Below are positions 36,011 through 46,939 of a DNA stretch of 62,251 bases, piece by piece. The stretch lies in IMG/VR virus record IMGVR_UViG_3300047409_000596, positions 1-62,251 of that record, one strand, 5' to 3'. Below the pieces are notes generated by a model. That model ran no database searches, was not told where the DNA came from, and was given only the letters and a program-made list of their open reading frames with translations. Numbering within the stretch: position 1 is the stretch's first letter; each line of letters opens with the position of its first letter. The stretch comes from a virus. Its lineage: Duplodnaviria > Caudoviricetes. A program made the translations under genes and the position numbers.

Positions 36011-36259
36011 TCATCGCTCACCCACCTTCTTCCGCAATTCGAGCACCTCTCGGATCAGGCGCGGGGCCAGTTCTCGCGCGAGAGTGAGCGCGTGGGCGTC
36101 CGCATGAGCCCTTGCCTTGTCGGCCGTTTCGGGACTCAGGCCTGCCTTGAACAGGGAGGCTTCGCCGCGATCGCCGGGCCGTTCCCAGACCACCAGACCG
36201 GCGATCGGGTTCATGGCCTCGATCTGCGTGAGGGCCGCCAGGAGTCCGTCGTTACTCAT
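36011..36259 (-). CDS. Hypothetical protein
   Basis: ATGA coupling with the mom-like gene; LIREVLELR motif. Confidence 0.55.
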   Translation of the reverse strand: MSNDGLLAALTQIEAMNPIAGLVVWERPGDRGEASLFKAGLSPETADKARAHADAHALTLARELAPRLIREVLELRKKVGER

Positions 36260-36852
36260 CGCTCGCTCTCCCCCTCGGCCCGGACGTTGACCGGGATGGC
36301 AGACAGATGTTTCTCCCACCGCTGCTTTACAGCGGCGCTCTGTGAAGGTACACGCTGACGATTCGGGCGCACCCAATCATTTGCCGCCCGGGAAGTTGCG
36401 ATCCAGCCAGCCGCTCGATAGATGGTTCCGGAATGAACCTCGGTATCTTGATAGGACACGAGGACGCGGATTTTCGGAAGCCGTTTCCGTATGTCCCGAA
36501 CCATCCAGCCAAGCATTCTGCTTGCAGTGTTTTTTGGTGCGTCAGGAGCAATGGCAAGGCGCCTCAGTTCCAGCCAGGTATCCTGTGGCAATAGCCTCGC
36601 TATGGGATTCGTCCAAACTGCCGTCGCATAGAACAGTCCCTTGTACTCTGCCACATAGCAGACAGAATGTACGGTTCGCAAGACGTTGGATTTTTTGAGC
36701 ACCGGGAGACGAGAATGCCACAGGCGGTTGAGATCGCAAGCCGTCTGCACTTCCACGGGACGGAAGAACAATTGGAGCGCCGAGGTCGGACTCGAACCGC
36801 CCCCTTCAGCTTGGAATAGCGGATATGCCACCCGTACACCATCGGCGCCCAT
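36256..36852 (-). CDS. mom: Mom-family (GNAT-fold) DNA adenine-modification enzyme
   Basis: LELRRL...PKNTASR...LVSYQD..HSGTIYRAAGW matches the Mom-like motif set. Confidence 0.75.
   Translation of the reverse strand: MGADGVRVAYPLFQAEGGGSSPTSALQLFFRPVEVQTACDLNRLWHSRLPVLKKSNVLRTVHSVCYVAEYKGLFYATAVWTNPIARLLPQDTWLELRRLAIAPDAPKNTASRMLGWMVRDIRKRLPKIRVLVSYQDTEVHSGTIYRAAGWIATSRAANDWVRPNRQRVPSQSAAVKQRWEKHLSAIPVNVRAEGESER
36773..36848 (-). tRNA. tRNA-Gly(UCC)-like cloverleaf inside the 5' end of the mom-like CDS
   Basis: 76 nt: GCGCCGA/UCGGCGC acceptor, U73, CCA, D-arm, UCC in an 8-nt loop, GGCGG-UUCGAGU-CCG(A)CC T-arm. Confidence 0.75.
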
Positions 36853-36865
36853 GATTGCCCTCAGC

Positions 36866-37066
36866 CTAACGTTCGCTAACGTCTTCTTTGATGACGTTCA
36901 CGGGAATTGCACTGAGCCCGCTTCCGCAGCGCTCACACCAACACGCCTCCAGCGGCGCGTCTCCGTGGGCCGGACCGTCGCCGACGTCGAAGCGGCGGAC
37001 GCGGTCACGGCACCCACATCCCGGACAAACCGGGAAGTAAGAAACATCCTCTTCCCGAATAGACAT
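36866..37066 (-). CDS. Small Zn-finger protein
   Basis: CPGC...CERC; AAGGAG RBS. Confidence 0.55.
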   Translation of the reverse strand: MSIREEDVSYFPVCPGCGCRDRVRRFDVGDGPAHGDAPLEACWCERCGSGLSAIPVNVIKEDVSER

Positions 37067-45388: not shown

Positions 45389-45487
45389 GATACTACTCGG
45401 TCGAAGTTCCCCCGCCCGCCCCTGCGCCGGCAACACACCGGCGCAGCCTTGCAATTGACGGGGTAGAGCCTGAGGCGGGCGGGGGAA

Positions 45488-45569
45488 AACCAGGGACGGG
45501 AATCGAACCCGTGTTTTCCGCGCGGATGGGCGTCCGGAGAGCGGCGCTAGCCAACGTAGCTGCCCTGGC
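45488..45569 (-). ncRNA. tRNA-like RNA with an aberrant extended anticodon arm
   Basis: GCCAGGG/CCCUGGU acceptor, GCUA/UAGC D-stem, ACGGG-UUCGAUU-CCCGU T-arm; no 7-nt anticodon loop; no encoded CCA. Confidence 0.7.
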
Positions 45570-46365: not shown

Positions 46366-46864
46366 CGCGACTCCTTCCGGGCGAATTCGCCCCGGGCGTA
46401 CACGTTCCGCGCTCGCGCCACGGCGGCGCGGACGCTGGCCAGGGGGTCTGTCACAACCGGCGCCTTGTGGCCCGTCCACTGCCGGTCGCACGCCTTGCAC
46501 TGCCACTGCTGGCCGGAATGGGCCAGGCAGCGGCGCCGGCAGTACGGGCAGGGACTGGACGTCGTCAGCACCTCGCGCCGGTGGTTGGCCTCATTGCGGT
46601 TGAACGGGCCACCGCGCGGCCCTCGGGGTACAGGGATCACCGTCTCACCTCCCTTCTCCGGCGCAGGGCGAGCCTGCGCAGCCGGGCCAGTTCGTCGTAC
46701 ACCCAGTCGACACGGACCTGCCGCACCGGCTTCGGCCGGTTCCGCGGGTAGGGGCTCCGGTCGCGGGGATTCGGTACACGTTGCATGGCATCCTCCCGTG
46801 CATCGGCGCGCAAAACGGACGTTGGCCCGAACGCCGGGCCGTTCCGCGTGTGCCTGGTGGTCAG

Positions 46865-46939
46865 TACCGGGGGTGGGGATCGAACCCACATCAGCCAGAC
46901 GGCGTCCCGCCTGCGCCTCTCCATTTGGGCTACCCCGGC
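46865..46939 (-). ncRNA. tRNA-like RNA with the anticodon loop closed to a tetraloop
   Basis: GCCGGGG/CCCCGGU acceptor, UAGCCC..UGG..GGC D-arm, CAGGCGG-GACG-CCGUCUG arm, GUGGG-UUCGAUC-CCCAC T-arm. Confidence 0.75.

Follow-up and report, generated by a model that had tools for sequence, protein, structure and literature searches.

The DNA-modifying enzyme Mom of phage Mu uses Gly-tRNAGly as its donor. The passages of PMC13219725 that bear on the matter say so, thereby confirming what the preliminary description of the locus considered here had put forward, and they report besides that Gly-tRNAAla is rejected and that any of the three host isoacceptors will serve; so far as those passages go, there is no tRNA gene at mom. 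Their authors speculate that Mom reads mainly the acceptor end of the tRNA. Mu mom is toxic and tightly controlled, according to the part of PMC3378877 that treats it. The available portions of PMC13219725, of a 2023 preprint and of PMC7824862 hold no passage on a tRNA gene linked to mom, and full-text literature searches turned up no description of a Mom-linked tRNA element. I describe here a Mom gene that carries a tRNA-like element within its own reading frame.

There is a precedent for tRNAGly that serves something other than the ribosome. The non-proteogenic tRNAGly species of S. aureus bind EF-Tu weakly, and EF-Tu sequesters the substrate of FmhB, as related in sections of PMC7826273; T-stem pair 51:63 figures in EF-Tu specificity, as passages of that paper and of PMC6097841 have it. 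The element described below would likewise, judging by its sequence, accept glycine and be set aside for a non-ribosomal tRNA-dependent transferase, and like the tRNAs of the Fem/FmhB system (PMC7826273, in the same sections) it departs from the norm in parts that matter to EF-Tu and the ribosome while keeping U73. The consumer in S. aureus is a cell-wall enzyme, whereas here it would be a DNA-modifying GNAT protein of a phage, and the RNA is physically joined to that enzyme's gene or lies beside it, unlike the staphylococcal tRNAGly. The hallmark differs as well: base-pair substitutions in S. aureus, a bulged T-stem nucleotide here. Weak binding to EF-Tu was measured for the staphylococcal tRNAs; for the element I only infer it.

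Viral tRNA mimics that keep the identity elements of a synthetase are known too. The tRNA-like structures (TLS) of plant positive-strand RNA viruses form the 3' terminus of an RNA genome, can be charged without being cut, and serve replication and translation, to follow the passages of PMC10870377 on the subject. By contrast, the element belongs to a DNA phage and lies inside an mRNA, where, in the clade of the window, it occupies the 5' end of the ORF; a reading frame runs across it, and the enzyme to which it is linked consumes aminoacyl-tRNA.

Transcripts that yield both a tRNA and an mRNA by endonucleolytic release are familiar from bacterial tRNA-tufB operons and from the tRNA punctuation of mitochondria. 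In those cases the tRNA stands between or beside the reading frames. Here ribosomes read through an entire cloverleaf that forms part of the frame, and release and translation therefore exclude each other. The leader of E. coli thrS offers a different comparison, an autogenous operator near the start codon that mimics tRNA in the gene of a tRNA-binding protein. Operators of that type mimic a single arm, lie in an untranslated leader and are not known to stand free, whereas the element has every arm of the cloverleaf, the acceptor end and CCA included, and exists also as a separate gene.

The Mom-family ORF of the window (the whole 62,251-nt stretch of viral DNA that was analysed) matches Pfam PF25680 (Mom) in a profile search with E 9.5e-17 and 61.8 bits against a cut-off of 27.1, over profile positions 63-155 of 202 only, and PHROG 1384 ('Mom-like DNA modification protein') with E 3.2e-19. 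The product of Mom is N6-carbamoylmethyl-dA. Mu Mom belongs to the same family, PF25680, and the donor of the two is presumably the same, glycyl-tRNAGly. The window protein, with 198 aa against 232 in the Mu Mom PDB chain, aligns with PDB 8bv8 over residues 92-150, that is, in the core only. R98, invariant in all 30 aligned Mom sequences, lines up with R102 of chain 8bv8_A, and S111 with A115. On the assumption that the chain numbering is offset by 9, these positions are presumably those of the catalytic R111 and S124 in Mu, A115 being S124A, and both residues are kept here. The C-terminal third has no alignment to the PDB chain; in Mu, an HTH-like insertion (residues ~175-209) is needed for activity. 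The AF2 model of the window protein has a mean pLDDT of 82.1, with 50-56 for residues 1-20.

Mu-type com-mom loci have a small zinc-finger Com just upstream of mom and overlapping it, and Mu mom is controlled via Com and other factors. The window locus has no such arrangement, nor is there a conserved Com-like partner in its clade. The upstream ORF, with its CxxC motifs, was tried as a Com analogue and rejected: it matches no Pfam or PHROG family, and it is not kept in relatives, whose 71 distinct upstream ORFs include just 9 with at least two CxxC motifs, those nine being mutually unrelated proteins. Neighbours besides Mom differ among related loci, and no integrase lies beside the element in the window. 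Both sequencing runs listed with the stretch are of soil-metagenome DNA, neither of RNA, and one of the two may be its source. The upstream ORF resembles Mom C-terminally (SAIPVNV...SER), a likeness that goes with no detectable DNA repeat.

Table. Features of the Mom locus in the window, with tRNA positions given for the parts of the element
Feature	Coordinates	Strand	Remarks
Mom-family ORF, 198 aa	36256..36852	(-)	codons 2-27 are the tRNA-like element, followed by the GNAT/Mom core
SD-like GAGGG (36858-36862) and ATG (36850-36852)	36850..36862	(-)	read from sequence
Upstream 66-aa CxxC...CxxC ORF	36866..37066	(-)	context only, not itself conserved as a partner
Downstream 82-aa ORF	36011..36259	(-)	ATG overlaps Mom stop codon (ATGA); no Pfam/PHROG family
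tRNA-Gly(UCC)-like element, 76 nt, in frame	36773..36848	(-)	ARAGORN, own covariance model R1, covariation
Acceptor stem, 5' strand, positions 1-7	36842..36848	(-)	pairs with 36777-36783
Acceptor stem, 3' strand (66-72), discriminator U73 and encoded CCA (36773-36775)	36773..36783	(-)	
D arm, stem 10-13/21-24, 7-nt loop	36825..36839	(-)	
Anticodon arm, stem 26-30/39-43, C28-U41 mismatch, 8-nt loop UAUUCCAA	36806..36823	(-)	
Anticodon UCC, positions 34-36	36813..36815	(-)	
T arm, stem 48-52/60-62+64-65, loop UUCGAGU	36784..36801	(-)	
Bulged A63, 3' strand of T stem, beside pair 51:63	36786..36786	(-)	

The element starts 4 nt after the A of the Mom ATG, with G1 (36848) as the second base of codon 2, and encodes GADGVRVAYPLFQAEGGGSSPTSALQ. 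Its acceptor stem, GCGCCGA/UCGGCGC, pairs at 7 of 7 positions. The preliminary description had read off this stem, U73, the CCA, the UCC, the T-loop, the 8-nt loop, the mismatch and the bulge, and every item is borne out on the sequence. Programs that look at one sequence at a time make little of the window copy. ARAGORN puts a tRNA on precisely these letters, 36773-36848(-), yet types it as 'tRNA-???' and gives it an anticodon of 2 nt. Rfam has no match in the window at gathering threshold (29 bits for RF00005, which this copy does not reach), and in E-value mode the sole match in the window is to tRNA-Sec, at 20 bits and E 0.16. A search of the whole record with RF00005 found two other tRNAs and missed the element. 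The cloverleaf is not the MFE fold (-20.6 vs -29.8 kcal/mol; z = -0.63); single-sequence thermodynamics is uninformative here, not contrary. Covariance model R1 gives the window copy 89.4 bits, the model itself including that copy. Generic single-sequence detectors are weak in this case, and it is comparison that establishes the element as more than chance.

The comparison covers 113 related loci, 89 of which have the same element in the same place and frame. These and the window reduce, on collapsing identical elements, to 72 distinct copies (71 and the window), which come from two collections. Among the 24 loci counted as element-less, 15 were dropped on a tblastn match starting after residue 13 (L089, L090, L091, L098, L100, L101, L103, L105, L106, L107, L108, L109, L111, L112, L113), L103 and L105 being cut at the contig start so that they cannot be judged, and nine were judged by eye (L047, L050, L052, L055, L060, L065, L079, L080, L102). 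The element-less relatives keep the frame and a residual peptide and are scattered within the clade. Repeated loss may be the explanation, on a parsimony reading of a quick IQ-TREE tree that has SH-aLRT values only, a midpoint root and several long branches. The Mom proteins of carriers (in the alignment sample) are 54-69% identical to that of the window, and the carrier contigs were binned with Planctomycetota, Verrucomicrobiota, Bacteroidota, Actinomycetota, Pseudomonadota, Bacillota and a Woesebacteria MAG.

The copies fall into two registers, within each of which 98-100% of cells are paired, a level reached by 0 of 500 shuffles and by none of the slid controls (34-51%). Register 1 (47 sequences) is 98.2% paired, with double changes in 16 of 21 pairs and slid controls of 37-49%; register 2 (23 sequences) is 99.8% paired, with double changes in 10 of 21. 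If one structure is imposed on all 72, pairing is 88.7% vs 75.2% in shuffles. (L025 and L033, which have 3-nt insertions, were excluded from alignment A3.) The acceptor stem is paired in 99.6% of cells over the 72 sequences; its pairs 4:69 and 5:68 vary freely, with 5-6 pair types each. In the 47 sequences of register 1, the D arm is 97.3% paired, with double changes in 3 of 4 pairs, and the anticodon arm 95.3%, with double changes in 5 of 5. The T arm is paired in 100% of cells if the bulge is allowed, and there are compensatory changes at 49:64 and 50:62. RNAalifold arrives independently at the acceptor stem and at the T stem with its bulge. Chance does not account for an element that covaries and that 89 of the 113 loci keep in position and in frame. 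The preliminary description had looked to covariation of the cloverleaf despite peptide divergence as support, and to its absence, or that of glycine identity, in homologs as a sign of chance capture; the covariation extends over all four helices in the 72 copies, and glycine identity is retained.

What is conserved is not a textbook tRNA, with a regular 5-bp T stem and a 7-nt anticodon loop. The bulged A63 is invariant (72/72). The anticodon loop has 8 nt in 49 of the 72 copies and the canonical 7 nt, in a shifted register, in 23; one member, L033, has a 3-nt insertion in this loop. At the elbow, where a tRNA would have G18 G19 and U54 U55 C56, T-loops are mostly of the UUCGA/UUCAA type, with UGCAAUU in 7 copies, UGAAAUU in 2 and further variants, and D-loops are often without GG, for example AAGAGAUA in 14 copies. 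RF00005 exceeds its gathering threshold in 11 of 20 relatives' loci tested (29.6-47.2 bits), and ARAGORN finds a tRNA at the ORF start in 34 of the 113 loci, 12 of them as tRNA-Gly(tcc).

Then there is the association with Mom outside the in-frame form. The bulged T-arm signature is matched by 118 viral loci, a count that, like that of 80 given below, includes many IMG/VR near-duplicates from one metagenome, not collapsed. An abutting Mom domain on the same strand is found at 108 of them, the element being N-fused in 79, just upstream in 2, free-standing on the 3' side in 17, read through in 9 and partly overlapped in 1. Representative ORFs at these loci are PF25680 in ten cases out of ten (E 2e-29 to 8e-55), with a Mom domain that either starts past the element or is over before the element begins. 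A second Mom subfamily was sampled by protein, and in 50 of its 80 loci the element lies directly 3' of the gene: free-standing, 5-31 nt past the stop codon, in 37; with the ORF stopping inside it in 7; and read through in 6. These 3' elements also have the bulged A63. In 3' copies the frame can differ (L184). The element was undetected in 29 of the 80 loci of the second subfamily and, in the first set, in 24 of 113. Those 113 loci (~2-6.6 kb each) yielded no other tRNA. There are at least three architectures of a Mom-linked tRNA-Gly-like gene, 5' fused, 3' free-standing and 3' read-through, and the association spans at least two Mom subfamilies.

Cultured phages have yielded no carrier, either by tblastn of the protein or by blastn of the element. 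The first search, with the window Mom, gave 52 records, all below 60% identity; among the 30 matches listed, identity is 29-37% and most are partial. With an element as query, blastn gave 3 short matches. The two best covered (L234, L235), which match the 3' part, T arm and acceptor, were rejected, one being without a tRNA and the other an ordinary tRNA-Cys, neither with a Mom. A separate search with residues 1-40, aimed at the number of proteins that have the peptide, gave at least 38 candidates (33 with E <= 0.001), a number set by the word index and no census.

The determinants of bacterial GlyRS are G1:C72, C2:G71, C35, C36 and U73, as listed in passages of PMC10464925, and the window copy has all of them. 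Among the 72 copies, G1:C72, C2:G71 and G3:C70 are each present in 71, C35 and C36 in 72 and U34 in 71; position 73 is U in 61 and A in 11, and CCA is encoded in 56 and missing from 16. The nucleotides of glycine identity, which the preliminary description had read in the window copy, are the most conserved positions of the element. G3:C70, which it had placed in the identity set, is conserved like the rest but absent from the list in the available part of PMC10464925. The A73 copies could reflect hosts with a GlyRS of the alpha2 type, discussed in part of PMC3990555. U73 is near-universal in bacterial tRNAGly and shields Gly-tRNAGly from DTD, a protection that matters most for species not binding EF-Tu (passages of PMC6097841). 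Elsewhere in those parts of PMC10464925, one bacterial GlyRS is said to need the arms and the overall L-shape, and G18/U55-type variants to be charged normally.

In 72 of 77 distinct contexts an in-frame start codon precedes G1 at a distance of 4-19 nt, unlike the upstream stop, which ranges over 9-297 nt. It is on this account that I take the element to be translated, as a predicted N-terminal extension of Mom of 25-26 residues. A hidden start downstream of the element was considered and rejected: the next codon is start-capable in only 13 of 75 CDS, and in 45 of the 75 there is no start-capable codon within the next 8. Both indels observed in elements are of 3 nt. At the same time the RNA is under selection. 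Mean pS is 0.445 in the 26 element codons vs 0.81-0.90 in every non-overlapping window of the gene (75 distinct CDS, leaving out those below 450 nt, containing N or with indels), that is, synonymous divergence is halved only in the element. C35 falls on the third position of a codon for Phe, written TTC in 72 of 75 CDS and TTT in none, and C36 is fixed while the residue that it helps encode varies among Q, R, H and P. Residue changes at pair 4:69 follow Watson-Crick rules: Ala/Ala, Gly/Pro, Val/Thr. Part of the conservation is nonetheless at the level of the protein, because the 3' part of the element encodes residues 21-30, for which the predicted structure has pLDDT ~90.

Could the protein account for everything, its N-terminal motif PLF...GGS.PTSAL resembling a tRNA by chance? 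All 29 aligned homologs keep the peptide, the model is confident for residues 21-30, and PLF and P.SPL are retained in element-less relatives. The idea is scarcely believable all the same, contradicted as it is by residues that covary as Watson and Crick would have them, by the constraint on synonymous sites, by untranslated free-standing copies that keep the same RNA, and by the different frame of 3' copies (L184). A relic in decay and now without a function, left by a captured tRNA or an attP core, would suit a copy that fails Rfam and that ARAGORN cannot type, and a structure that has been lost in some lineages. It is asking a great deal of a relic, however, that it should show double changes in 16-18 of 21 pairs and remain 98-100% paired while the Moms have diverged to 54-69% identity with that of the window, that synonymous constraint should be confined to it, and that its odd features (the bulged A, UUCC) should be invariant, with U34 in 71 of 72. 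No integrase adjoins the element in the window, and covariation over 72 distinct sequences contradicts a relic, making it very improbable. tRNA genes are common in phages, and one might suppose an ordinary elongator tRNA-Gly, supplying a codon or replacing host tRNA cut by defence nucleases, whose in-frame overlap is an accident of a compact genome. The copies of register 2 do have a canonical 7-nt loop, with RF00005 scores up to 47.2 bits, and there are two further tRNA genes in the record. But an elongator should not have a bulge in the T stem in 72 of 72 copies, an anticodon loop of 8 nt in 49 of 72 and T and D loops that are often non-canonical, nor should it abut Mom at 108 of 118 signature loci, with no other tRNA in the 113 loci and with neighbours other than Mom that vary. 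I regard this as quite improbable.

The element might instead work only in cis, as an operator that throttles initiation or that binds Mom or GlyRS in autogenous repression, its RNA never being released or charged. In 72 of 77 contexts no more than 4-19 nt separate the start codon from the cloverleaf, which puts it within or at the edge of the footprint of the initiating ribosome. Mu mom is toxic and tightly controlled (PMC3378877, in the part cited), and no conserved Com-like partner is found here, so that some other control would be needed; Mom, which tells tRNAGly from tRNAAla in the passages of PMC13219725, could bind a mimic. The free-standing 3' copies (37 of 80), however, cannot be 5' translational operators, and those at the 3' end of ORFs cannot gate initiation. 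Moreover, the invariant C35 and C36 and the mostly kept CCA and U73 are features that matter for GlyRS and a free 3' end, and Mom, so the authors of PMC13219725 speculate, reads mainly the acceptor end. An operator and nothing else is unlikely. The preliminary description had left the choice between a dedicated donor and a cis decoy; the free-standing copies favour the former over the latter.

I propose, as a reading somewhat better than even, that the element is a functional tRNA-Gly-like RNA gene, kept by selection and coupled genetically to Mom-family genes for DNA aminoacyl-transferases, dual-coded in the clade of the window, that would furnish Mom with a private donor. It is probably a non-ribosomal glycyl-tRNA, dedicated to Mom. 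According to this model, the com-less single-gene transcript would have two mutually exclusive fates. Ribosomes that start 4-19 nt upstream would unwind the cloverleaf and make Mom. Alternatively, the cloverleaf would fold, and RNase P together with 3' processing would excise the element, severing the SD and AUG from the ORF. The released RNA, of ~76 nt, would be glycylated via the kept GlyRS determinants (G1:C72, C2:G71, C35, C36 and usually U73). The invariant bulged A beside T-stem pair 51:63, judging by its position between nucleotides 63 and 64, would keep the RNA off EF-Tu and the ribosome, an avoidance to which the 8-nt anticodon loop of most copies and the eroded D/T elbow of many would add, and U73 would spare the glycylated element from DTD. 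The outcome would be a private pool of Gly-tRNA for Mom, limiting the output of a toxic enzyme and supplying its co-substrate from the same transcript.

In its boldest form, which I consider possible but put at a little under an even chance, the model has a single frame specify the enzyme together with an orthogonal co-substrate of its own: 26 codons at the start of the gene would double as a glycine-accepting tRNA that is excised, charged by host GlyRS, kept off EF-Tu and the ribosome by its bulge and consumed by Mom made from sister transcripts, with the contest between ribosome entry and RNase P cleavage setting the ratio of enzyme to donor in a toxic system of DNA hypermodification. Against the proposal is the cost of excision from the 5' fusion, which destroys the message, along with the 16 of 72 copies without CCA, the 11 of 72 with A73 and the non-canonical T- and D-loops of many. 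The RNA is also dispensable for some Mom enzymes, because element-less loci exist and Mu Mom works with host tRNAs.

If the model is true, this would be the first phage-encoded tRNA dedicated to DNA modification and not to translation, and, to my knowledge, the first whole selected tRNA to share the reading frame of its own consumer enzyme. Element and Mom would be a natural orthogonal pair of tRNA and transferase, whose chemistry might be diversified by G3:U70 variants, such as the L117-type copies, or other NCC anticodons. The model opens to test the competition of Mom with EF-Tu for Gly-tRNA, the control of mom toxicity in phages without Com, and what it is that Mom recognises in a tRNA. 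There is also a warning for annotation. tRNA finders mostly miss the element, at 79 of the 113 loci, and gene callers either swallow the tRNA, as in most homologs, or truncate the ORF: the record's own call for the window gene is 171 aa.

The window's ORF encodes a Mom-family GNAT, matching Pfam PF25680 (E 9.5e-17) and PHROG 1384, 'Mom-like DNA modification protein' (E 3.2e-19). Its core aligns to the solved chain of Mu Mom, 8bv8, with R98 and S111 opposite chain residues R102 and A115, which I take, by an inferred offset in numbering, to be Mu R111 and the S124A of the crystallised variant. According to passages of PMC13219725, Mu Mom moves glycine from Gly-tRNAGly onto N6 of adenine in double-stranded DNA, and, as passages of a 2023 preprint also have it, all three E. 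coli tRNAGly isoacceptors serve and glycine on tRNAAla is rejected. The preliminary description had named Gly-tRNAGly as the donor, pending verification, and these passages confirm it. The passages searched of PMC13219725 mention no tRNA gene at mom.

The 5' part of the gene can be read as a tRNA-like cloverleaf, the element. It has an acceptor stem with seven of seven pairs (GCGCCGA/UCGGCGC), a D stem GUGU/GCAU, an anticodon stem of five pairs including one C-U mismatch, an 8-nt anticodon loop (UAUUCCAA) with UCC inside, a variable region of 4 nt, a T stem GGCGG/CCG-A-CC with a bulged A, a T-loop UUCGAGU, and U73 followed by an encoded CCA. The features first described from the sequence alone all match. 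Taken by itself the window copy is a marginal tRNA, since ARAGORN calls it at exactly 36773-36848(-) with no assignable type, it falls below threshold in Rfam searches, and its minimum-free-energy fold differs from the cloverleaf.

Features of the Mom locus and of two further tRNA-like genes
Feature	Coordinates	Strand	Remark
Mom-family ORF, 198 aa	36256-36852	-	ATG at 36850-36852
GAGGG 5' of ORF start	36858-36862	-	sequence reading
76-nt cloverleaf	36848 to 36773	-	read as RNA
tRNA-like gene	46862-46939	-	RF00005 34.5 or 34.6 bits; ARAGORN 'tRNA-???', 2-nt anticodon
tRNA-like gene	45485-45569	-	RF00005 34.5 or 34.6 bits; missed by ARAGORN

A protein search with the window's Mom gave 2543 relatives among 2736 candidates, and PF25680 is present in all 120 relatives listed of the 2543. 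When the window protein is aligned with 29 homologs, all 29 keep the peptide that the cloverleaf encodes at the N-terminus, and L12, F13, G19, P22, T23, S24 and L28 are invariant in the 30 rows. DNA was obtained for 80 viral loci (from 289 relatives among 343 pattern matches) and 33 genome loci; the genome contigs with Mom relatives belong to bins from many phyla. Of these 113 loci, 89 carry the element at the corresponding position and in the frame seen in the window (72/80 viral, 17/33 genomic), and two of the 24 loci without a detected element are truncated at the contig start. In 34 loci ARAGORN reports a tRNA where the ORF begins (12 tRNA-Gly tcc, 21 untypable 'tc', one 'atcc'), and it calls no further tRNA in any of the 113. 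Of 20 loci scored with the Rfam tRNA model, 11 pass its gathering cut-off (29.6-47.2 bits).

The window's copy and 71 other distinct copies align nearly free of gaps (both indels are of 3 nt), with G1, G6, C35, C36, G52, C60, the bulged A63 and C67 invariant. Covariation in homologs, the check proposed in the preliminary description, is found in all four helices. The copies use two registers: register 1, in 49, has a D-loop of 7 nt and an anticodon loop of 8 nt; register 2, in 23, has a D-loop of 8 nt and the canonical 7-nt anticodon loop. Register 1 (n=47, after exclusion of the two copies that carry 3-nt insertions) has 98.2% of cells paired and double changes at 16 of 21 pairs; register 2 (n=23) has 99.8% and 10 of 21. 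When all 72 copies are put on one structure, pairing is lower (88.7% vs 75.2% shuffled, double changes at 18 of 21 pairs), because the D and anticodon arms occur in two registers. None of 500 shuffles was as high in any of these alignments, and slid controls gave 37-49%, 34-51% and 36-51%, respectively. Over the 72 copies the acceptor stem is 99.6% paired, with 1:72, 2:71 and 3:70 fixed in 71, and the T stem is 100% paired if the bulge is permitted; RNAalifold found both stems independently. Pair 4:69 is CG in 43, GC in 26, and AU, UA and UG in one each; pair 5:68 is AU in 27, CG in 25, UA in 13, GC in 4, and others. The compensatory changes carry through to the protein, where residues shift in step with Watson-Crick pairing (for example Ala/Ala, Gly/Pro and Val/Thr at 4:69).

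In 75 distinct coding sequences the mean synonymous difference is 0.445 over the 26 codons of the element vs 0.81-0.90 in all non-overlapping windows, and the non-synonymous difference is unremarkable (0.288 vs 0.25-0.43). The Phe codon that ends in C35 is TTC in 72 of the 75 and TTT in none; relatives without the structure use TTT. The codon that opens with C36 varies, encoding Gln, Arg, His or Pro. Judged by its reading frames, the element is translated in the window's clade. Counting back from G1, the first in-frame start codon (ATG, GTG or TTG) comes at 4-19 nt in 72 of 77 distinct contexts, with 32 at 10 nt and 24 at 13 nt, and the nearest upstream stop varies over 9-297 nt. The record's own gene call, 171 aa from a TTG after the CCA, is unlikely to be right, because the codon directly 3' of the element is start-capable in only 13/75 and the next eight codons offer no start in 45/75. 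Since in other fused proteins the Pfam Mom domain begins directly after the element, and AlphaFold2 pLDDT in the window's Mom is 50-56 at residues 1-20 and about 90 at 21-30, leading into the first strand, the peptide is modelled as an appended extension, partly packed. Relatives without the element retain the frame together with a remnant of the peptide. On a quick, midpoint-rooted tree their rows are interspersed with those that bear the element, and well-supported branches force at least five changes, a pattern that fits repeated loss.

Viral contigs were also scanned for the bulged T-arm signature, giving at least 118 loci, which were classified with my own Mom profile. Among the 118 matches listed, 79 are in-frame fusions to the Mom domain and 2 lie directly upstream of it with the ORF discontinuous; 17 are free-standing directly 3' of the gene, 9 form a C-terminal tail by read-through, and 1 is partly overlapped by the ORF end. 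One has Mom on the opposite strand, 2 are at contig ends, and in 7 Mom was not found (2 chance matches, 2 with the T-arm only). A same-strand Mom gene adjoins the signature in 108 of the 118 listed, and 10 of 10 representative ORFs match PF25680 strongly (E 2e-29 to 8e-55). Because the signature biases this sample, a protein-based one was taken from a second Mom subfamily (594 relatives, 80 loci) and searched with a covariance model of the element. Here the element is directly 3' of the gene in 50 of 80 loci: 37 free-standing (gaps 5-31 nt, one 204 nt), 7 with the ORF stop inside and 6 read through. The search detected none in 29, and one further locus ends too early. In the 3' copies the acceptor ends remain GCG...CGC and the anticodon NCC (UCC, CCC or ACC), and the A is still bulged. 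Four fused loci (L123, L179, L185, L194) have an in-frame stop 3-6 nt before G1, which leaves an ATG inside the D arm (at +14 in L123) as the sole start available; frame and RNA therefore stand in no fixed relation across the family. To judge from these loci, the RNA and its place beside Mom are constant, and the coding arrangement is not.

Some placements differ. In L115 Mom is on the strand opposite the element; at L244:2268-2341(-) the element lies just after the gene, on the opposite strand; at L276:106-180(+) it is about 1.2 kb upstream of Mom. At L136:5407-6644(+) a 329-aa open frame comes after it, then a separate 84-aa frame with the C-terminal Mom motifs, and this Mom gene may be frameshifted or split.

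These comparisons show the element to be a tRNA-like RNA under selection, linked to the genes of an enzyme whose substrate is Gly-tRNAGly. I propose, with somewhat more belief than doubt, that it is excised, glycylated and kept from translation, supplying Mom. RNase P and 3' processing would free the RNA and host GlyRS would glycylate it. The element keeps the bacterial GlyRS determinants named in passages of PMC10464925: G1:C72, C2:G71, C35, C36 and U73. U73 is present in 61 of 72 copies, and CCA is encoded in 56, kept even through a Leu-to-His change that creates A73. The invariant bulge beside pair 51:63, with the 8-nt anticodon loop, would bar the RNA from translation; the region of this pair governs EF-Tu affinity, according to parts of PMC7826273 and PMC6097841. 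Staphylococcal non-proteogenic tRNAGly likewise stand outside translation, EF-Tu otherwise sequestering their substrate pool (passages of PMC7826273), an exclusion the element would share. U73 is a known shield of Gly-tRNAGly against DTD, above all in species unbound by EF-Tu (PMC6097841, in part). In the 5' fusion, a cut at G1 would separate SD and AUG from the ORF, so that one transcript would give enzyme or donor. The choice could plausibly serve as a brake on a toxic enzyme in phages without a conserved partner like Com, the Mu translational regulator; none was found by Pfam on the window or among upstream ORFs of relatives.

Against this proposal, excision from the 5' fusion is costly, many copies have eroded T and D loops, 11/72 have A73 and 16/72 lack CCA, one copy has an anticodon-loop insertion, many Mom genes have no element, and part of the peptide is probably structural. 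A purely cis-regulatory role, in which the element would act only on the gene it adjoins, is unlikely, set beside the GlyRS determinants and the free-standing 3' copies. That it is an ordinary elongator tRNA is more doubtful still; the bulge is invariant. A relic, or a motif of the protein only, deserves little credence; the peptide is kept in homologs, and so are the pairing and the silent sites.

Neither tblastn of the protein nor blastn of an element turned up a cultured phage that carries it, and a literature search gave nothing connecting a tRNA gene to mom. The proposed function would resemble a known kind, that of tRNA isoacceptors reserved for an aminoacyl-transferase. A phage tRNA devoted to modifying DNA has no precedent known to me, and neither has a complete, selected tRNA that lies in frame within the gene of the enzyme consuming it.

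Free-standing 3' elements in L117, L131, L149, L152, L158-L161 and L236-L256 combine G3:U70 with U73 and a UCC anticodon. G3:U70 is the alanine identity pair. An inverted repeat made by their flanks would lengthen the acceptor helix. AlaRS might charge such copies, or DTD might act on them more readily (compare passages of PMC6097841), and they raise the question whether their Mom transfers something besides glycine.

The window is a whole IMG/VR virus record and is linear (62251 nt, CheckV completeness 74%), its DNA is also present in soil-metagenome runs, and the genes around mom have no known function by PHROG. At ATGA, 36256-36259(-), the Mom stop overlaps the ATG of an 82-aa ORF with no family match in Pfam or PHROG, which suggests translational coupling. 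The C-terminus of the upstream 66-aa ORF, ...SAIPVNVIKEDVSER (36866-36920(-)), is echoed at the peptide level by that of the Mom ORF, ...SAIPVNVRAEGESER (36256-36310(-)), with no DNA repeat detected between the two stretches; the echo suggests that the end of the upstream gene is where a tRNA+mom unit was inserted or recombined.

With the covariance model of the Mom element, the record's two other tRNA-like genes, 46862-46939(-) and 45485-45569(-), reach no more than 18.8 and 14.8 bits and are therefore of a different kind. Both have acceptor ends of the GCCNGGG...CCCNGGU type, in which position 1 would pair with U. Their anticodon regions are irregular or too large, with unaligned inserts of 19 and 16 nt. 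A G+C-rich hairpin lies 5' of the first.
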